From assembly GCA_016213945.1 (NCBI GenBank), contig JACQZF010000048.1, positions 33,854-97,853 on the forward strand: a stretch of DNA of 64,000 nt, given 5' to 3'. The position numbers and the translations under genes are program-made. This DNA comes from Nitrospirota bacterium (GTDB lineage: Bacteria; Nitrospirota; Thermodesulfovibrionia; UBA6902). The notes under the pieces are model-generated. The model did not search any database and was not told the DNA's origin. It saw only the letters and a program-made list of their open reading frames with translations. Shown here one piece after another: positions 3,679 to 58,178 of this stretch (its first letter is position 1; each line of letters starts with the position of its first letter).

Positions 3679-3698
3679 ATTATCTATATTTCTTGGCT

Positions 3699-3755
3699 GT
3701 CATTCCGGCTTGTTCGGAATCCTTTTTAAGAAGATTCCCGACAAGCGGGAATGAC
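3699..3755. repeat. REP-like palindromic element copy 1 (GTCATTCCGGCTTGTTCGGAATCC...GATTCCCGACAAGCGGGAATGAC) between two glutamate synthase genes
   Basis: Two inverted ~24-nt hairpin units. The termini GTCATTCC...GGAATGAC are shared by all copies. Confidence 0.7.
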
Positions 3756-3803
3756 ATCATTCGGTAACTTCCGCGCTTTTGCTCTTCTGCGCTATTGAAC
3801 TTT

Positions 3804-5465
3804 TTAACATACATAATTAATCTGTAGTCTCTCTGCAATCGCATGGTCGTCTGTGCTGATGCCGTCTGACATGCCGATTGGCAGTTCCGTGCTTCGGCCC
3901 ATTGGGGCGAATATTTTCTTCAACTCTATATCCAATGATTTGTAAACTTCAACCACCCTCTCTGCAACCACATCAGGGTCAAGCCTCCTGTAGAGTTTTG
4001 GGTCCTGAGTCGTGATGCCTCTCGGGCATTTGCCAAGGTTGCATACGTTGCAGCGGTTCATCTCATCTCCATGACAGGCTGCTGCCGCCTGCATGATATA
4101 TTTCCCGATTGAAACAGCGGATGCGCCTAACATGAAGAGCGCTGCAGCATTCGCCGCAAGGTTGCCCTTCTTTCCGACACCTCCTGCCGCAATGAGAGGC
4201 AGTTCATTCTGTTTGCCGTATTTTACGAGGTCGAGATAGCATTCTCTAATATTGGATGCGATGGGATGCCCCATCGTGTCCATTGATACGGCGTATGCCG
4301 CGCCTGTCCCGCCGTCCTCACCGTCAATCGAAAGGGCAGCGGCATACTGATTTCTGACTAAATTATTCAGGACCGCCTTTGCAGTCCGCGTTCCTGAGAT
4401 CTTCGGATAGACAGGGACCCTGAAGCCCCACGCCATGGACATTGACTGGATCATCTTTGCGACAGACTCTTCAATCGAATATTTCGTCTGATGCGTCGGA
4501 GGCGAGGGGAGGTCTACACCCATCGGCACTCCCCGAATCTCTGAGATTAATTTCAAAACCTTGTGCGCCATCAGGAGCCCGCCGTCTCCGGGCTTTGCGC
4601 CCTGCCCGTATTTGATCTCAATCGCGCAGGGGTCTTCGATCATATGAGGGAGCGTCCTGATAATCTCGTCCCAGCCGAAATAACCTGAGGCGATCTGGGG
4701 TATAAAATATTTAATGAACCTCGACTTGAGAAGCCTGTGCGGCATCCCGCCTTCACCTGAGCACATGACAACCGGCATCCCTTCAACTTCATTGAGATAC
4801 GTAATGCCCATTGCAAGCCCTTCCCACATGGTGGGAGAAAGCGCGCCGATGGACATGCTGCCTATCATCACAGGGTATATTTCCCGGACAGGCGGTATGA
4901 ATTTACCGGTAGTTTTATCAGCATCGAGCTTGCCGTCAATCATCTTCAGCGGCAGTTCTTCCGCAGGCAGTATCCTGCCTAAGTACGTACGTATCCTGAA
5001 TTCGTGCCTGCCTGCGTCAAGCGCAGGGTCGGTGAGCATGGAGATTCTTGTAAATCTCAATCTGTCCAAAGTGGAAGGCGACGGATCGTTTCTCCTGCCG
5101 CCCCTTCTGTAGGGATGACCGCCTTTGTTTTTATGGAAGTTGAATTTATGCTGCGGATTATACTCCGGCTCAATTGCCTCGTTGGGACAAACGAGTGTGC
5201 AGGTCCCGCAGCCAATGCAATAGCGTTCTATATTGGTTGTCTGTTTGACCATAGTCGTGACAACCCGCGCTGCTTTGGGTTCAGGTGTCATTCCTTCTGA
5301 CTGTAAAACCCGTTTTACAACAACAACCGGTTCTATTGAAAGCATCGGGCAGACGGCTGTGCACCTGCCGCAGCGTTTGCACCTGTCATCACGCCATCTA
5401 ACAACGTATGGTAGATCTTTTACTGAAAGCTCATGATTATGGTCTAAGCGTGAAGCTGGTTCCAT
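3804..5465 (-). CDS. Glutamate synthase FMN-binding domain protein (archaeal-type domain 2) with an N-terminal 2x[4Fe-4S] ferredoxin
   Basis: It carries CKRCGRCTAVCP / CIGCGTCTLVCP and the Glu_synthase core (GVDLPSPPTHQ..., IDGEDGGTGAA, LIAAGGVGKKGN). Confidence 0.8.
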   Translation of the reverse strand: MEPASRLDHNHELSVKDLPYVVRWRDDRCKRCGRCTAVCPMLSIEPVVVVKRVLQSEGMTPEPKAARVVTTMVKQTTNIERYCIGCGTCTLVCPNEAIEPEYNPQHKFNFHKNKGGHPYRRGGRRNDPSPSTLDRLRFTRISMLTDPALDAGRHEFRIRTYLGRILPAEELPLKMIDGKLDADKTTGKFIPPVREIYPVMIGSMSIGALSPTMWEGLAMGITYLNEVEGMPVVMCSGEGGMPHRLLKSRFIKYFIPQIASGYFGWDEIIRTLPHMIEDPCAIEIKYGQGAKPGDGGLLMAHKVLKLISEIRGVPMGVDLPSPPTHQTKYSIEESVAKMIQSMSMAWGFRVPVYPKISGTRTAKAVLNNLVRNQYAAALSIDGEDGGTGAAYAVSMDTMGHPIASNIRECYLDLVKYGKQNELPLIAAGGVGKKGNLAANAAALFMLGASAVSIGKYIMQAAAACHGDEMNRCNVCNLGKCPRGITTQDPKLYRRLDPDVVAERVVEVYKSLDIELKKIFAPMGRSTELPIGMSDGISTDDHAIAERLQINYVC

Positions 5466-28470: not shown

Positions 28471-29454
28471 ATGCGGCTTTCTGAACTCGGCGAATTCGGC
28501 CTTATAAAAAGGATCAGGGCTAAATGCAAAAATGTTTCCCCTGAAATCATTGAAGGCATTGGCGACGACGCGGCAATTATAAAAACAGGGGCAAAAAAAA
28601 TTCTCGTCACCACTGACATGATGATTGAAGGGACCCATTTCGACCTTTCATTTACAACGTTCTCACAACTGGGCCACAAATTTTTAGCGGTAAACATCAG
28701 CGATATCTTTGCAATGGGCGGAAGCCCGGAATATTTTTTTATCAGCCTCGGTATTCCCCAAAAATGCAAAACTGAAGATATTGATGAACTGTATTCAGGA
28801 ATATTAAAGCTCGCAAAAAAATCCGGGGTTACAATTGCGGGCGGCGATACATGTTCATCAAAAGACGGACTTGTGCTAAGCGGAACTCTCATCGGGACCG
28901 CTGACAGAATAATTACACGCTCAGGAGCAAAAGCAGGAGACGGCATTTTCATCACGGACACAGTGGGGGATTCTGCAATGGGGCTTATACTTTTAAAAAG
29001 TCAGAAGTCAGAAGTCAGAAGTCAGAAGTTAAAAAACAAGAAGCTGAAATTTGGAACTCAAAACTCAAAACTCATCAAGAAACACCTGATGCCGGAGCCG
29101 TTCCCTATGAAAAACATGTCTAAGGTTACATCAATGATTGATATTAGCGACGGGCTTCTGATAGATTTAAGTCATATTTGTGACGAAAGCAAAGTCGGCG
29201 CTTTAATTTATACAGATAAGATCCCGGTATCAAAGGAGCTTGCAGAAGCTGCCGGGACATTGCGACTGAATCCTGTAAGTCTTGCGTTAAAAGGCGGGGA
29301 AGATTATGCGCTGCTTTTCACCGCACCGCAGGACATAAAGACAGATGCATTTAAAATCGGCGAGATTGTTAAGAGGGGCCGTTTTATAGTTGACGAAAAA
29401 GGGAGAAAGAGAAGATTTCAGGCGGAAGGATATGAACACTTTAAAAGAAAGTAG
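28471..29454 (+). CDS. thiL: Thiamine-monophosphate kinase, carrying an inserted low-complexity segment encoded by tandem 7/8-mers
   Basis: ThiL N-terminus (GEFGLIKRI...GDDAAII...) and PurM-like fold. The insert reads KSQKSEVRSQKLKNKKLKFGTQNSKL. Confidence 0.8.
   Translation: MRLSELGEFGLIKRIRAKCKNVSPEIIEGIGDDAAIIKTGAKKILVTTDMMIEGTHFDLSFTTFSQLGHKFLAVNISDIFAMGGSPEYFFISLGIPQKCKTEDIDELYSGILKLAKKSGVTIAGGDTCSSKDGLVLSGTLIGTADRIITRSGAKAGDGIFITDTVGDSAMGLILLKSQKSEVRSQKLKNKKLKFGTQNSKLIKKHLMPEPFPMKNMSKVTSMIDISDGLLIDLSHICDESKVGALIYTDKIPVSKELAEAAGTLRLNPVSLALKGGEDYALLFTAPQDIKTDAFKIGEIVKRGRFIVDEKGRKRRFQAEGYEHFKRK
29000..29078. repeat. 4 x heptamer GTCAGAA array plus 2-3 x octamer AACTCAAA array, in-frame inside thiL
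   Basis: gtcagaa x4 at 29000-29027; aactcaaa aactcaaa actcatca at 29056-29078. Confidence 0.85.
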
Positions 29455-30880: not shown

Positions 30881-32077
30881 TCAACTGCCCGCGATGATCT
30901 TCCCCTCGTATGACACAAGATGTGCGGTAACTGGGATGCCATCAATTATTGTTTCAGCATATTTCTTTGCATGAACGCAAACCTTTGGAAACAGTGACAA
31001 GTGACGGGTGACGGGTGACGAGTTAATAAAGTCAAAAATCTCTCTTGCAGTATTGAAGTCCTTTTCCTCAGGCACAGTAATTCCGAGCGAGTTTAAAAAC
31101 TCTACGGCCTTCTTCATATCAATCGCTCCGAATCTCACATGAGTCTGCGGAGTCGCCATTGCTATCTTGACCATCTTGGCCCATTGCGCGCAGAGATGGA
31201 TTTTTTTAAATCCATGTTTCTTTGCCTCTCGCAGTGAGTATTCGAGATAGTCGCCGATGAGGACATATGATTCTTCGGGAAGATGATATTCCGCCATGTG
31301 CGCCTTTTCAGATGTCCGTCCCGCAGAAAGGACTATCTCCTGAAGCCCTGCCGCCTTTGCCACCTTCATTGATGAAGTAATTGTAGCCGTCCACGCTTCG
31401 GCAGATACAGGTTTGACAATACCCGTTGTGCCGAGTATCGAGATGCCGCCCGTTATGCCGAGTCTCGCATTTAAAGTCTTCTTCGCCAGCTCCTCTCCGT
31501 GAGGCACGGAGATAGTGACCTCAAGAAGAGCAGAAGTGCAAAAATGCAGAAGCGCAGAAGATGCATTGGTTTCCGAGTAGCTTTTCTCATCTTCCGCTTT
31601 TGCACTTTTGCACTTTTGCTCTTTTGCACTATTATCCAGCAACGCTTCCCTCACTGCCTCTTCTATCATCTTTCTCGGTACAGGATTGATCGCCGCTTCA
31701 CCAACAGGAACCGGCAGTCCGGGCTTCGTGACAATACCAACGCCCTTGCCGCCTTTGATTAAAATCAGGGATTGGGGATTGGGGATTGGGGATTGCTCTG
31801 TGCTCTGAATTCTGACTTCCGCCGCTATTTCAGCGCCGTTGGTTATATCCGGGTCATCTCCCGCGTCCTTTATTACCGATGCAATTGCCGTAAATATTCC
31901 GTCCTGAACTCTGAATTCTGAATTCTGAATTCTGAATTTATGCCTGCTGCCGTCAGGGAAGGGAATGTCAACATCAGTGACGGGTGACGGGTGACGGGTG
32001 GCGAGCAAGGCTGCCGCTTTCGCAGCGGCCGCCGCGCATGCGCCTGTTGTATATCCTGAGCGTAAATTCTTTTTCAT
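30881..32077 (-). CDS. cbiD: Cobalt-precorrin-5B (C1)-methyltransferase CbiD, carrying at least six in-frame tandem-repeat insertions
   Basis: N-terminus LRSGYTTGACAAAAAKAA. The inserted peptides SPVTRHPSPVT, RIQNSEFRVQ, QSPIPNPQS and AKEQKCKSAKAEDEK are encoded by heptamer/octamer arrays. Confidence 0.75.
   Translation of the reverse strand: MKKNLRSGYTTGACAAAAAKAAALLATRHPSPVTDVDIPFPDGSRHKFRIQNSEFRVQDGIFTAIASVIKDAGDDPDITNGAEIAAEVRIQSTEQSPIPNPQSLILIKGGKGVGIVTKPGLPVPVGEAAINPVPRKMIEEAVREALLDNSAKEQKCKSAKAEDEKSYSETNASSALLHFCTSALLEVTISVPHGEELAKKTLNARLGITGGISILGTTGIVKPVSAEAWTATITSSMKVAKAAGLQEIVLSAGRTSEKAHMAEYHLPEESYVLIGDYLEYSLREAKKHGFKKIHLCAQWAKMVKIAMATPQTHVRFGAIDMKKAVEFLNSLGITVPEEKDFNTAREIFDFINSSPVTRHLSLFPKVCVHAKKYAETIIDGIPVTAHLVSYEGKIIAGS
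30994..31021. repeat. 4 x heptamer GTGACGG tandem array, in-frame inside cbiD
   Basis: gtgacaa gtgacgg gtgacgg gtgacga. Confidence 0.9.
31530..31561. repeat. 4 x octamer GCAGAAGN tandem array inside cbiD; inverted counterpart of the 31597-31628 array
   Basis: gcagaagt gcaaaaat gcagaagc gcagaaga. Confidence 0.85.
31597..31628. repeat. 4 x octamer CTTTTGCA tandem array inside cbiD
   Basis: cttttgca x2, cttttgct, cttttgca. An 18-bp segment TTGCTCTTTTGCACTATT recurs at 43947-43964. Confidence 0.85.
31768..31795. repeat. ~4 x heptamer GGATTGG tandem array inside cbiD
   Basis: gggattggggattggggattggggattg. Confidence 0.9.
31904..31938. repeat. 5 x heptamer CTGAATT tandem array inside cbiD
   Basis: ctgaact then ctgaatt x4. 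Confidence 0.9.
31977..32004. repeat. 4 x heptamer GTGACGG tandem array inside cbiD (same unit and orientation as 30994-31021)
   Basis: gtgacgg x3, then gtggcga. Confidence 0.9.
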
Positions 32078-42387: not shown

Positions 42388-43611
42388 TCAATTCTTTATA
42401 TTTACGTTCCTCACTCCGGATGGCCTCCATGCCGGGGATATAACGCCTGGCGGTTTTGCCTGTTCGAGATAAGACGCCCATGTGACAGTGAACTCTCCGT
42501 GCTTGTCATTGATGGAATCAACCGCGTTGAGGATGGATTTCTCCTTTGCCCTGTGATCAAATAACGCCATCTGGTCATTATCGTCCCTCTTTAATTGTGA
42601 GATGCTGACGCCGACCAATCTGACCTTGTCACGAAGGCGTATTGAATTGAGAATGCCCAATGCGCAGTTGTAAATTTCACGGGTAATGTTTGTGTGCTCG
42701 GACAGAGTAGTCTGCTTTGTGAAGGTCTCAAAATCAGGATACCGTATGGTGAGGGTGACCTTCTTCCCTGCAAAGCCGTACTTCCTTGCCCGCCGTCCAA
42801 CCATTGCGCTTAACTTTAAAATCTGCGCCTCTATCTGCTTCCTGTTTGAAATATCCTGAGGTAATGTCATGCTGTGACCGATGGATTTCGGATCTTCTTC
42901 TTTGACGATGAGAGGCCTGTGGCAGATCCCCTGCCCCATGAGTTTCAATGTCTCCCCGACGATGCCGAATCTGTTTCTCAATAAACCTGCGGGCGCGCTG
43001 CCAAGCTCGCCGCAGGTTTTTATCCCAAGCCCGGCAAGTCTTCGCTCAATTGACGGACCGATGCCCCATAATTCCTTCACGGGCAGATCTTTGAGCACGG
43101 ATGGAATATCTTCTTCTTTAAACCAACGTAAACCGTCCGGCTTTGCAATGTCGCTGGCAAGTTTTGCCATAAGAATATTCGGGGCGATGCCGACCGTGCA
43201 ATTGATGCCGAACTGTTTTTTGACTTCCTCCTTAATTGAAAGTCCGATAGCCTCAGCCCCCCCGAACAAATGATGCGTTGTCGTCACATCAAGGAAGGCT
43301 TCATCGATGGAGTAGACCTCAATATCAGGCGTGAACCTGCTGTAGACCTTGGAAAGCTCCCTGCAGGTGTGAGTATATTTTTCACTATCTCCAACAACGA
43401 AGATGATATGCGGACACAACTTCTTCGCCTCATAAATGTTCATCCCCGTCTTAACGCCGAATTTCCTCGCCTCATACGAACGCGTGGTGACGACCGTCCT
43501 GCCGCCGGAGCCGATGACCGCAACCGGTTTGCCCCTGAGCTTCGGATTCGCCTGCTGCTCAACAGAGGCAAAGAAGGCGTCCATGTCTATGCAGAGAATG
43601 ATGGTTTTCAT
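42388..43611 (-). CDS. dinB: DNA polymerase IV
   Basis: MKTIILCIDMDAFFASVEQ... with a strong RBS (AAGGAGGGG) before the Met. The 43638 TTG extension is probably not used. Confidence 0.85.
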   Translation of the reverse strand: MKTIILCIDMDAFFASVEQQANPKLRGKPVAVIGSGGRTVVTTRSYEARKFGVKTGMNIYEAKKLCPHIIFVVGDSEKYTHTCRELSKVYSRFTPDIEVYSIDEAFLDVTTTHHLFGGAEAIGLSIKEEVKKQFGINCTVGIAPNILMAKLASDIAKPDGLRWFKEEDIPSVLKDLPVKELWGIGPSIERRLAGLGIKTCGELGSAPAGLLRNRFGIVGETLKLMGQGICHRPLIVKEEDPKSIGHSMTLPQDISNRKQIEAQILKLSAMVGRRARKYGFAGKKVTLTIRYPDFETFTKQTTLSEHTNITREIYNCALGILNSIRLRDKVRLVGVSISQLKRDDNDQMALFDHRAKEKSILNAVDSINDKHGEFTVTWASYLEQAKPPGVISPAWRPSGVRNVNIKN

Positions 43612-43684
43612 TACAGGTTGAAATCCCCTCCTTAACAAGGAGGGGCAGGGGAGGTTTTTTCATGGGATCGTTCTTGAAGTTTTA

Positions 43685-43969
43685 TTAATTAAATTCCCCG
43701 TCCTGCTCTCCCCGTGTGTCTGCGTGGTATTCGGAACTGTCTGACGATTCCTTACCGCGCTGTTCAATGATAATGCCGAGCAATTCAGTCATGAATTCCT
43801 TGTCACTGGTCATTCTTGTTACTACACCGTCTCTTTCTTTTTTTGGCAATTCCTTTAACGCCCTCCAGAACACTTCTGGTACTGCTTCATTAATTGTCAT
43901 GGTCCCTGCCTCCTTATGAAAAGTACAAAAGTATAAAACAAAGAAATTAAAGTCCTTGCTCTTTTGCAC
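43685..43969 (-). CDS. Hypothetical small protein in the lexA-dinB operon (likely starts at the internal Met of MTINEAV)
   Basis: ORF between lexA and dinB. Confidence 0.35.
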   Translation of the reverse strand: MQKSKDFNFFVLYFCTFHKEAGTMTINEAVPEVFWRALKELPKKERDGVVTRMTSDKEFMTELLGIIIEQRGKESSDSSEYHADTRGEQDGEFN

Positions 43970-43988
43970 TATTGCGCTTCTGCACTTC

Positions 43989-44231
43989 TTATGTCTCCAC
44001 GCCCTCCAGTCTCCATATCAGTGACGTTGCGTCGAAAGCAAGCTCATACAGGGTCTTGCCGTCTGTCACGGAAAAATGGTGAACCAGGTTTTGTCCATCG
44101 GTTGTTTTCCACATGTATGTGATTTCCTTAACCTCAAAAGTCTTCCCCAACCATTTAAACTTGACCGGCCGTATCCTGTAACGCGGCCCGAATGAGACGA
44201 TGACGCTTATGTGTTCACTGATCTGCATCAC
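43989..44231 (-). CDS. Hypothetical small protein (80 aa), overlaps the lexA stop by 4 nt
   Basis: The ATGA-type overlap suggests translational coupling to lexA. Confidence 0.4.
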   Translation of the reverse strand: MMQISEHISVIVSFGPRYRIRPVKFKWLGKTFEVKEITYMWKTTDGQNLVHHFSVTDGKTLYELAFDATSLIWRLEGVET

Positions 44232-44824
44232 ATCTTCCTTATGACGCCCATGACTTTTCCCATGATGGTTACTTCATCTGCGTTGTATGTCGCGGGCTTC
44301 ATAGTTTTGTTTTCCGGTCTTAAAATTATCTTTCCCTTTTCTCTGAAGACCCTCTTTACGGTAGCTTCGTCTTCTATGAGAGCGACCCCGATCTCGCCAT
44401 TCCTTATAGTGCTTTGAGGCCTTACCACTATAAAGTCGCCGTCGAGTATCCCCGCATCTATCATGCTGTCGCCTGTTACTTTTAGGGAGAAAGCGTCCTC
44501 TGCCGGGAAAAGTGTTTTATCAATAAAGATGTGCGAGTCGATCTCCTCCACCGCTAATATCGGCCTTCCTGCCCTTATCCTTCCAGCCACAGGTGCCATA
44601 ATTCCCTCTGATTGCCTGAGCCCCAATATCTCGATGCCCCTTGATTTGGCGGGGTTTATCTTTATAAATCCTTTCCGCTCGATTGCCTTCAGGTGCATCC
44701 TCGCGGCAGCCCACAGGAACCCGAAATGCTCGCCTATTTCCCTGACCGTAGGAGGGTAGCCGTGCTTTTGCGCGTACTCTTTAAGGAAGTCCAGGACCTT
44801 TTTCTGTCTGCCGGTTAATTCCAT
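44228..44824 (-). CDS. lexA: LexA repressor
   Basis: N-terminal wHTH (LTGRQKKVLDFL...YPPTVREIGE), the Ala-Gly cleavage site region, and an S24 peptidase Ser/Lys dyad. Confidence 0.9.
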   Translation of the reverse strand: MELTGRQKKVLDFLKEYAQKHGYPPTVREIGEHFGFLWAAARMHLKAIERKGFIKINPAKSRGIEILGLRQSEGIMAPVAGRIRAGRPILAVEEIDSHIFIDKTLFPAEDAFSLKVTGDSMIDAGILDGDFIVVRPQSTIRNGEIGVALIEDEATVKRVFREKGKIILRPENKTMKPATYNADEVTIMGKVMGVIRKM

Positions 44825-56790: not shown

Positions 56791-57114
56791 ATGAAGAAGA
56801 TTCTTTTGGTGATCTCAATGATGCTTGTTCTTGCTATTACTATGCTGGGTTGTGCAACAAAAGGTGACCTTGAGAGAGTTCAGTCGCAGCAAATGCTGAC
56901 TGGTGCGAAAGCTGATCAGGCAGCGCAGGATGCGCAGGATGCCAAGGCGGCAGCTGATGCGGCCACGTTAAAGGCAGAGGCTGCCGCAACCCGCGCCGAA
57001 AATGCCCTGAAGATAGCAGAGGAAAGGGAGAAGATAGCAGAGGAAAAGGCGAAGATGGCAGATGAAAAAGCGAAGATGGCTGACGACATGTTCCAGAAAT
57101 CAATGAAGAAGTAA
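56791..57114 (+). CDS. Lpp (Braun)-like alanine-rich coiled-coil lipoprotein ending in Lys
   Basis: Lipobox LGC, Ala/Lys/Glu-rich heptads, and the terminal sequence ...SMKK. Confidence 0.6.
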   Translation: MKKILLVISMMLVLAITMLGCATKGDLERVQSQQMLTGAKADQAAQDAQDAKAAADAATLKAEAAATRAENALKIAEEREKIAEEKAKMADEKAKMADDMFQKSMKK

Positions 57115-57149
57115 GTCAATTTTATGGGAGTGTAGGGGCAATTCATGAA

Positions 57150-58178
57150 TTGCCCCTACACTCTTATGTATTAACGAACACGAAGGGATATATGGGTAAA
57201 AAGCAAAGTAGGACAGGTGAGCATTTTTACTTTTTCTTTGTCTGCATCATAATAACACCAATTTTAATATGCGGATGCAGTCACCTTAATGAGGGATTTC
57301 GGGCCAAGTCAACCTTCAAGGAAGCGAATGATCTTTTCAGCCAGGGAAGCTATAAGGCCTCTCTGAGCAAATATGAGCAGCTTATTGAAAAATATCCTGC
57401 GGCGGGAGACAGGGTTCTTTTCGAGATGGGTATTATTTATGCGTATCCTATAAATGAGCAAAAAGATTATCAGAAATCTCTGGAATGTTTTCAGAAACTA
57501 ATAAAGGATTACCCGGAGAGTGGGTACAGGAAGGACAGTGAGATGATGATATTCCAGATCAATAATGTCATCTTCAAAGATAAGACGATTGGTACGCAGC
57601 AAACACAGATTGAGACTCTCCAGCAAGAAGTCAAAAGCAGAGGGCATGAGATTATTACACTGCAAGAAAAGATCGAAGCGCTTGAACAAGAGGTCAAGAG
57701 CAAAGAGAATGAGATTATTACACTGCAAAAAGAGGTTTTTGCACTCCAGAAGGGACCGGCAGATAAGATTCTGATAGAAAAGAAAGAGCGACGATTGACA
57801 TTGCTCTCAAAGGGCAAGGCGATCAAGACCTACAACATAGCCTTGGGGGGGAACCCGAATGGTCCAAAAGAAAGGCAAGGCGATAACAAAACCCCGGAGG
57901 GAATCTACGTTATCGATTCAAGAAACAGGGACAGCCCTTATCACCTGTCTCTTCATATTTCCTATCCAAACGAGAAGGACAAAAAGCGGGCAAAAGAACT
58001 TGGTGTTTCTCCGGGCGGAGACATCATGATCCACGGCATTAAGAATGGTTTCTCGTGGGTTGGTAATTTGCACACAGAGGTTGACTGGACGAAAGGGTGT
58101 ATTGCCGTTACAGACGAAGAAATAGAGGAAATTGACAAGTTAGCGCCAAATGGTACGATTGTTGAGATAAGGCCATAG
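57150..58178 (+). CDS. L,D-transpeptidase (YkuD domain) with an N-terminal TPR-like region and a coiled-coil repeat
   Basis: It ends ...HLSLHISYPN...GDIMIHG...WTKGCIAVT, with a QEVKS..EIITLQ repeat. Confidence 0.75.
   Translation: MPLHSYVLTNTKGYMGKKQSRTGEHFYFFFVCIIITPILICGCSHLNEGFRAKSTFKEANDLFSQGSYKASLSKYEQLIEKYPAAGDRVLFEMGIIYAYPINEQKDYQKSLECFQKLIKDYPESGYRKDSEMMIFQINNVIFKDKTIGTQQTQIETLQQEVKSRGHEIITLQEKIEALEQEVKSKENEIITLQKEVFALQKGPADKILIEKKERRLTLLSKGKAIKTYNIALGGNPNGPKERQGDNKTPEGIYVIDSRNRDSPYHLSLHISYPNEKDKKRAKELGVSPGGDIMIHGIKNGFSWVGNLHTEVDWTKGCIAVTDEEIEEIDKLAPNGTIVEIRP

Follow-up and report, generated by a model that had tools for sequence, protein, structure and literature searches.

A hairpin of inverted octamer arrays in the cbiD gene of a Nitrospirota bacterium: a probable in-frame insertion from a dispersed repeat family

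We analysed a stretch of 64,000 nucleotides from a Nitrospirota bacterium (assembly GCA_016213945.1, contig JACQZF010000048.1, positions 33,854 to 97,853; hereafter the window). Its cbiD gene contains two tandem octamer arrays that are inverted copies of each other and form a long hairpin inside the reading frame. We read this hairpin as a tolerated, selfish or neutral in-frame repeat insertion, kept because the reading frame was preserved, and put the probability of this reading at about 0.55. The initial annotation had proposed a mobile, miniature inverted-repeat element (MITE-like) inserted in frame; the in-frame insertion and the membership of the arms in a dispersed repeat family are borne out, the assignment to MITEs in the defined sense is not. 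The features of the locus are the following.

30881..32077, - strand: cbiD open reading frame (ORF), host of the insertion, 398 aa, cobalt-precorrin-5B C1-methyltransferase, PF01888.
31524..31561, + strand: purine-rich arm, about 4.5 tandem octamers, GCAGAAGT GCAAAAAT GCAGAAGC GCAGAAGA; mRNA CTTCTGCN, peptide SSALLHFCTSALL.
31562..31596, + strand: spacer or loop, found at the cbiD locus only (and at the orthologous site of the relative L001).
31597..31636, + strand: pyrimidine-rich arm, CTTTTGCA CTTTTGCA CTTTTGCT CTTTTGCA plus the degenerate unit CTATTATC; mRNA GCAAAAGN, peptide SAKEQKCKSAKA.
31529..31642, - strand: variable protein segment, residues 146-183 (LLDNSAKEQKCKSAKAEDEKSYSETNASSALLHFCTSA), about 30 residues over the shortest orthologues.

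The octamer arrays extend over positions 31524-31630 and read GCARAAGN, then CTTTTGCN. Tandem Repeats Finder delimited them at 31524-31565 (period 8, 5.1 copies, 76% matches) and 31597-31630 (period 8, 4.2 copies, 92% matches). That they are approximate reverse complements, as pointed out in the initial annotation, was confirmed by a repeat search, which paired 31526-31554 with 31595-31623 (29 nt, 90% complementary, 40 nt apart) or, alternatively, 31527-31560 with 31597-31630 (34 nt, 79%, 36 nt apart); this inverted repeat is the top-ranked one in the whole window. The outer bases of the loop prolong the stem (GAAGATG pairs with CATCTTC) and about 24 central nt stay unpaired. Sequence and arm alignment both show that the first two bases of the units, which are variable, are mirrored between the arms (GA, GT, AT/GT, GC). 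On the + strand the 29-nt arms contain two G-T wobbles and one A-C mismatch, and on the - strand the reverse; an attempt to deduce the strand of action from this G-U asymmetry was rejected, the wobbles being too few to decide.

Folding of positions 31520-31640 gave -54.5 kcal/mol (z -7.7) for + strand RNA, -48.0 kcal/mol (z -5.6) for - strand RNA, which is the mRNA sense, and -29.8 kcal/mol (z -6.2) for + strand DNA, and none of 200 shuffles matched this stability in any of the three foldings. Among 6388 windows of 120 nt taken from both strands (mean -26.6, sd 7.2), the cbiD hairpin is the most stable local fold.

At the protein level, the ORF product matches PDB entry 1sr8 and is 100% identical to protein P0001 of a Nitrospirae metagenome-assembled genome (MAG). 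Alignment with 18 homologues showed that the conserved CbiD motifs are intact despite the insertion, and that the hairpin maps to a segment of variable length located between the motifs AINPVPRKMIEEAV and LEITISVP, both conserved. The AINP and GE.LA..T motifs are 73 aa apart in the window CbiD versus 38-45 aa in distant orthologues (35-50% identity), and the variable segment counts 38 aa, versus a median of 18 and a range of 6-43 among the 117 closest homologues. From this longer anchor distance and longer segment we conclude that the hairpin was inserted in frame and added about 30 residues, the size that had been anticipated. In the AlphaFold model (mean predicted local distance difference test score, pLDDT, 75.9) the score drops to 42-50 over residues 151-180, the flanking core being confident, and two helices are drawn there, at 132-160 and 172-181. 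Residues 95-102, encoded by the heptamer array at 31768-31795, also score below 50. The insertion thus lies in a linker that the model renders at low confidence and that we take to be a permissive inter-domain linker of CbiD.

The arms recur elsewhere. Three consecutive units (CTTYTGCNx3) were searched for in one genome per GTDB species, which returned at least 120 loci. Among the 120 matches listed, 23 are from Nitrospirota, and 10 of these lie in one MAG, JACRHB01, which contains at least 10 CTTYTGCN loci. CTTYTGCN arrays are thus a dispersed family, common in Thermodesulfovibrionia. Over 47 arrays (the listed loci and those of the window) the mode of array length is 4-5 units, and the arrays mix three unit variants, CTTTTGC, CTTCTGC and CTATTGC. 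A conserved order of unit variants was looked for as a sign of defined element ends, and none was found in the arrays compared. An inverted partner within 150 nt accompanies about one array in five, most copies being single arrays. Paired arrays were seen at L011, L025, L028 and L033 as well as twice in the window (cbiD and the 43.9-kb locus), the two arrays of a pair lying about 15-40 nt apart; the loops are unrelated between the paired copies in other genomes, and the purine-rich arm is 5' in all six independent hairpin copies. Unrelated loci, also of different genomes, draw on one unit vocabulary (CTTTTGC/CTTCTGC/CTATTGC, CTGAATT, GTGACGN, GAGTTCG, GGTGAAT). A scan of viral contigs for the octamer array gave 13 stretches, mostly long arrays of 24-nt period, with no link to Nitrospirota.

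Most of the CTTYTGCN arrays fall inside long open frames whose sense strand is the purine-rich one, and this strand encodes K/Q/E/A/S-rich peptides such as AEVQKCRSAE. The Pfam hosts of in-frame arrays include CarB (one site in two genomes), LeuS, ferrochelatase (HemH), a TrpE-type chorismate-binding enzyme, a KdsB-type cytidylyltransferase and CobA/HemD, and the domains concerned are stretched by 15-20 residues. Filled and empty sites can be compared in a BPL_N protein: the one from JACRHB01 contains two inserts, one of 30 residues encoded by heptamers (FKIQDSKFKIQDSRFTSSLVTRHSSL) and one of 16 residues encoded by octamers, and the orthologue from L002 has neither. For TrpE, pairwise alignment placed an octamer array in one genome opposite a different repeat of equal length in another.

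Inside the window, the pattern CTTTTGCACTTTTGCA with at most three mismatches has 10 matches versus 1.33 expected, and two further octamer loci of the family were delimited.

43919..43992, no strand assigned: second, degenerate inverted octamer pair of the CTTYTGCN family, AAAAGTAC AAAAGTAT ... CTTTTGCA CTATTGCG CTTCTGCA.
3768..3807, + strand: third octamer array, intergenic and unpaired, CTTCCGCG CTTTTGCT CTTCTGCG CTATTGAA CTTTTTAA.

The pair at 43.9 kb contains an 18-nt exact match to the cbiD arm. This recurrence had been pointed out in the initial annotation and is real, but its position is 43956-43973 and not 43947-43964, and GCGCTTCTGCAC follows at 43974-43985. The degenerate hairpin (-22.6 kcal/mol, z -2.6 on the - strand) sits between two small minus-strand ORFs of a LexA-to-DinB cluster. 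This minus-strand cluster (42388-44824) comprises a LexA gene, the two small ORFs and a DinB/ImpB-type polymerase gene.

The insertion was compared with that of the closest relative, L001 (GCA_016214845.1), which is syntenic with the window (91.3% nucleotide identity over 14.9 kb). The L001 cbiD gene carries the insert at the identical site, with a nearly unchanged loop and about 10% substitutions in the arms; its divergence is about equal to that of the rest of the gene. Among the stem pairs, one shows a two-sided change (A-T to T-A), two changed to wobble and about four are broken, and the sense-strand fold is weaker in L001 (-38.2 versus -48.1 kcal/mol in the window for the identical segment). 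Covariation between the two was considered and rejected: it is not significant, and a template-switch correction could explain the changes equally well. The unit numbers of the arrays are identical in both genomes, and over the 14.9 kb there is a single coding indel, located in cbiD, an expansion of 45 nt made of (GCACAGA)n and a further 24 nt. Since this is the only coding indel, the cbiD arrays are not contingency loci; a phase-variable locus was likewise discarded given the same unit numbers at 91% identity and a biosynthetic enzyme gene kept in frame. Towards the 5' end of cbiD (window 31860-31990 versus L001 10136-10196), 60 nt are exchanged without change of length between flanks at least 95% identical: the window has (AATTCAG)x4.5 where L001 has (AACTCWN)x4, which, judged from the sequences, looks like a cassette-like turnover of a heptamer array inside cbiD.

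The DNA of eight further CbiD orthologues was then inspected at the linker site, with z-scores from mononucleotide shuffles. An inverted-array hairpin was present at the linker in seven of eight independently sampled lineages, that of the window and L001 included, with z-scores of about -3 to -8.6 and units of 7-8 nt that differ by lineage, as listed here.

L204: hairpin unit GCAGAACA.
L205: hairpin unit GAGCAGAA.
L206: hairpin units AGCGGAAG / CAGAAGA.
L207: hairpin units GCGGAAGC / CTTCCGAA.
L208, L209, and L128 with L135: heptamer hairpins of GAGTTAT, GGTGAAT and AATCCGA, respectively.

No hairpin was found at the CbiD site of L210. The distant orthologue L002 has only a single sense-strand array, of GTGCAAAAG, at this site, and P0054 likewise has a single array. 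The antisense strand folds better than the sense strand in all seven hairpin lineages (L204-L209 and window/L001), with -41.4 versus -17.4 kcal/mol in L204, and this bias is absent from hairpins of the CTTYTGCN family at other loci. From their sequences, we read the CbiD linker as a probable permissive hot spot that repeat blocks colonise or replace repeatedly. At the same site, L125 and L137 have a palindromic element of about 80 nt that encodes GDCPRFTGAAPVFDGAGSESGLSPTS and, by its sequence, looks like a true full-length repeated element. The GDCPRFTGAAPVFDGAGSESGLSPTS element was also observed in frame in CbiD of several lineages (P0009, P0012, P0014 and others), twice in P0009, at two sites.

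The following scenario accounts best for these observations. In a probably permissive linker of CbiD, a unique spacer separates two oppositely oriented arrays, each of 4-5 tandem octamers (CTTYTGCN / GCARAAGN). They belong to a lineage-wide family of blocks of 7-8-nt units, usually in 4-5 copies, which in Thermodesulfovibrionia populate both intergenic DNA and surface loops of housekeeping proteins. The block would persist because the frame is kept, no stop codons are introduced and the location tolerates extra residues. New copies and replacements may arise by templated copying between blocks, either through ectopic gene conversion or through template switching at hairpins, and template switching within the quasi-palindrome may maintain the likeness of the arms. 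No evidence was found of a cbiD-specific function for the insertion.

Several observations weigh against this scenario. The presence of hairpins at the CbiD site in so many lineages, together with their antisense bias, could mean that structure is selected. Two heptamer arrays, 60 nt in total, are identical between the window and L001 where the background divergence is about 9%, a possible sign of constraint or homogenisation. Neither a recent gain nor a recent loss of the cbiD hairpin was caught, the closest relative without it being only about 68% identical. Mobility is inferred from dispersal alone, given that no target-site duplication, conserved core or transposase was found. The interleaving, not clustering, of insert families on a neighbour-joining tree of the conserved CbiD core speaks in favour of the scenario, but this tree has no bootstrap and its sequences are all about 60-65% identical.

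The closest precedent that we found for the cbiD arrays is provided by the paired tandem sites of Geobacter metallireducens. Three classes have been described in this species: 24 opposite-strand site pairs at variable distance, made of four tandem octanucleotides GTTGCTYN (class 1; Aklujkar et al. 2009, PMC2700814); 21 pairs of three TCTCCGTS[Y] units (class 2; PMC2700814); and 8 pairs of five tandem heptanucleotides MTYCTGA (class 3; PMC2700814). These sites occur between and "even within genes" and were read, without experiment, as IHF/HU sites, and insertion sequence (IS) elements (ISGme8/9) keep a constant distance to some class 1 sites (PMC2700814). Both systems are multi-copy blocks of 4-5 tandem 7-8-nt units on opposite strands. 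About four tandem octamers per site are found here as well (4-5 units per arm), as are opposite-strand pairs at variable distance in many copies, though most of the present arrays are unpaired. As far as the coordinates of Fig. S5 are readable, the Geobacter pairs also share the polarity of the CTTYTGCN pairs, with the purine-rich block 5'. The class 1 consensus GTTGCTYN differs from the CTTYTGCN unit, and the phylum is another one. It is the class 3 consensus MTYCTGA that other window arrays fit: the class 3 heptamer (CTGAATTCTGAATTCTGACTCCTGA; CTGAATT/CTGACTC) is shared with window positions 31904-31938 and, as the reverse complement (CTGACTT), 28998-29029 (4.6 copies). Unlike the Geobacter pairs, the cbiD arrays are close together (36-40 nt), form one long hairpin and are translated in frame in a conserved enzyme.

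Going further, we suggest only tentatively that Thermodesulfovibrionia and at least G. metallireducens harbour uncharacterised mobile "micro-foldback" elements. Each would be a block of 4-5 tandem units of 7-8 nt, and many blocks would form inverted pairs of fixed polarity, the purine-rich arm being 5'. The blocks would copy themselves or be replaced like cassettes by a hairpin or template-switch process without target-site duplication, and would recolonise permissive enzyme loops, giving lineage-specific peptide insertions across the proteome.

Rickettsia palindromic elements (RPE) are another relevant case. As reviewed in PMC10969869 and PMC3184786, Ogata et al. (2000) described palindromic repeats lying in frame in housekeeping genes unrelated to one another, where the protein fold can accommodate them, and in many genes per genome. 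Insertion in frame and without disruption is likewise what is seen in cbiD and the other host genes. In the same reviews, RPE are of about 100-150 bp, with a conserved full length and a conserved peptide. No such conserved sequence and peptide unites the present family, in which only the 8-nt units of the short tandem arms and short peptides (QKCKSA, LLHFC) recur, loops are unrelated and singles are commoner than pairs. Repetitive extragenic palindromic (REP) sequences are imperfect palindromes of 20-40 nt outside genes, or inverted doublets of them (REPIN), and go with a RAYT transposase; the cbiD element is an inverted doublet and its spacer is short, but it lies inside a gene and consists of tandem units.

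A further related kind is formed by long simple sequence repeats (units of 5-11 nt), among them the cyanobacterial STRR heptamers and the small dispersed repeats that Elhai reportedly described in 2008. Such repeats resemble the arrays of the window in that one heptamer or octamer occurs 2-6 times at many loci, with about four copies preferred, and their patchy phylogenetic distribution suggests horizontal spread by a mechanism that is not known. Unlike the cbiD arrays, they are mainly intergenic and under-represented in coding DNA, and inverted pairs with long hairpins in essential genes are not described among them. Other examples are the dispersed GGGNATC heptamers of Xanthomonas and Nostoc, with about four units preferred (PMC4692102), and the TAACTGA repeats of Beggiatoaceae, Cyanobacteria and Bacteroidetes (PMC4679880). 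The GGGGA(C/T)T repeats of Nostoc form G-quadruplexes (PMC4692102), and the window array (GGGGATT)x4 at 31768-31795 shares their unit and four-copy preference. Coding palindromes of Nematomorpha mitochondria are likewise long inverted repeats with both arms translated, but they are perfect, up to 284 bp, mitochondrial and not made of tandem short units (PMC6649704). No literature on such repeats in Nitrospirota or Thermodesulfovibrio was found.

Four other explanations of the cbiD hairpin were considered. A local, non-mobile origin is unlikely in our view. The octamer array would have grown by replication slippage within a permissive loop, a strand-switch (fold-back) error would then have made its inverted copy, and similar arrays elsewhere would be independent, as slippage favours 7-8-nt units. 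The single sense-strand arrays of L002 and P0054 would fit the first step and the mirrored variable positions of the arms the second; the GCACAGA expansion separating L001 from the window also points this way, and for repeats of 5-11 nt in general slippage was put forward by Mrazek (2007; summary in PMC4679880). Independent origins do not account well for a unit vocabulary shared by unrelated loci of different genomes, even in Geobacter, or for the 18-nt exact identity between two loci of the window. Moreover, copy number is stable between the window and L001, and array length peaks at 4-5 units with no geometric decay.

The MITE hypothesis is best considered in its foldback form, in which ends made of tandem transposase-binding subrepeats are moved by a transposase encoded elsewhere. 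Bacterial MITEs (Correia, Nezha, ERIC; PMC3184786, PMC10969869) share with the cbiD element a small size, inverted termini, a stable predicted hairpin and occasional in-frame ORF fusions. The size of about 105 bp, the 29-nt inverted termini and the multi-copy arms would suit this hypothesis, as would the common polarity of the six hairpin copies and the IS elements whose distance from the analogous paired octamer sites of G. metallireducens is fixed (PMC2700814). The termini are nevertheless tandem octamer arrays and not unique sequences, and the element has no conserved interior: the orthologous L001 site was the only other place where blastn found the loop (31555-31596), whether in the window or among the fetched related DNA of about 1.5 Mb, and no full-length second copy of the hairpin was found in the window or the fetched related loci. 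No direct repeat of at least 3 nt was seen at either set of arm boundaries (flanks ...GACCTCAAG before the arms and CTATTATCCAGC after them), hence no target-site duplication. No partner transposase or end-sharing IS was found, neither a complete genome nor an IS library having been searched. Single arrays outnumbering pairs and the lack of a conserved unit-variant order speak in the same direction. The cbiD element is not a classical MITE, only its inverted ends and size being appropriate, and we regard the foldback variant as quite improbable.

We also give little credence to a functional nucleic-acid element, that is, an array bound by a nucleoid or regulatory protein (as hypothesised with IHF/HU for the Geobacter pairs), or a sense or antisense RNA hairpin that would control, at the domain boundary, the translation of cbiD, the pace of folding or the stability of the mRNA. 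Its best arguments are the recurrence of hairpins of differing sequence at the CbiD linker and the greater stability of their antisense strand, to which can be added the rank of the cbiD hairpin as the most stable fold of the window, a fixed size of 4-5 units as expected for a binding site, and the perfect conservation of several heptamer arrays against 9% divergence. However, many close homologues have short unstructured segments (6-13 aa) at this site, L210 lacks the hairpin, the strand asymmetry does not extend to other loci, and the stem of L001 has accumulated mismatches at the expense of its stability. An Rfam scan of the window at gathering thresholds detected two tRNAs only and nothing at the hairpin, where no terminator-like site was seen either. 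A sigma-70-like promoter match at 31607-31635 is weak (9/12 positions; 4 such matches in the region versus 1.6 expected) and was rejected. Finally, arrays lie in many essential genes that are unrelated to one another, a pattern more in keeping with tolerance than with regulation.

An adaptive protein insertion, in which a predicted helix-loop-helix, Lys/Gln-rich then Leu/Cys/Phe-rich, would provide CbiD with a novel interaction or stabilising feature, the palindrome in the DNA being incidental, is hardly credible: the frame is kept free of stops in both the window and L001 and AlphaFold draws the two helices, but confidence over the insert is low, identical peptides occur in unrelated enzymes, and the insert sequences are unrelated across lineages, tracking DNA repeat families rather than protein properties.

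If the tolerated insertions indeed belong to a self-propagating family, this would be the second large-scale case of repeat DNA in bacterial coding genes, after RPE, and its architecture of tandem micro-units, unrelated loops and no visible target-site duplication would point to a propagation mechanism yet to be described. The paired octamer and heptamer sites of G. metallireducens, unexplained since 2009, would also become more tractable, Geobacter being cultivable with existing genetic tools. More immediately, the inserts inflate and diversify housekeeping proteins in Nitrospirota MAGs and can mislead alignment, domain annotation and phylogeny; residues of peptides like FKIQDSRF or VTRHSSL appear conserved and are in fact repeat-encoded.

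Besides the octamers, heptamer arrays were found in cbiD and in a neighbouring gene.

28998..29074, + strand: (AAGTCAG)x4.6 plus (AACTCAA)x2.9, in frame in the neighbouring AIRS-domain gene; copy number the same in L001.
30993..31023, + strand: (AGTGACG)x4.4, imperfect, near the 3' end of cbiD, encoding SSPVTRHLSL.
31768..31795, + (non-coding) strand: (GGGATTG)x4, equal to (GGGGATT)x4, perfect, in cbiD, encoding SPIPNPQS.
31904..31938, + strand: (CTGAATT)x5 in cbiD, encoding FRIQNSEFRVQ; a different heptamer array of equal length in L001.
31977..32000, + strand: (GTGACGG)x3.4 in cbiD, encoding TRHPSPVT.

The array at 31768-31795 is identical in L001 despite the background divergence of about 9%. 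A peptide of the SSPVTRHLSL type, SSLVTRHSSL, also occurs in an unrelated protein of another MAG.

A few other repeats were observed in the window. An unrelated hairpin at 3698-3756, with 29-nt arms (TGTCATTCCGGCTTGTTCGGAATCC..GATTCCCGACAAGCGGGAATGACA), lies directly upstream of the octamer array 3768-3807, and a motif like that of this hairpin, TGTCATTCCCGCG, adjoins an octamer array in the viral contig L219. Within an ORF, a 21-nt repeat of 3.3 copies (GAAGATAGCAGAGGAAAAGGC) at 57009-57077 codes for a heptad repeat of the KIAEEK type. At 57128-57163, a perfect 36-nt palindrome, GAGTGTAGGGGCAATTCA followed by TGAATTGCCCCTACACTC, occupies a short gap between two + strand ORFs. Its GTAGGGGC...GCCCCTAC motif is also present in L046 and appears translated (CRGKARLAP, VGAGLKPAPT) in CbiD and TrpE orthologues.

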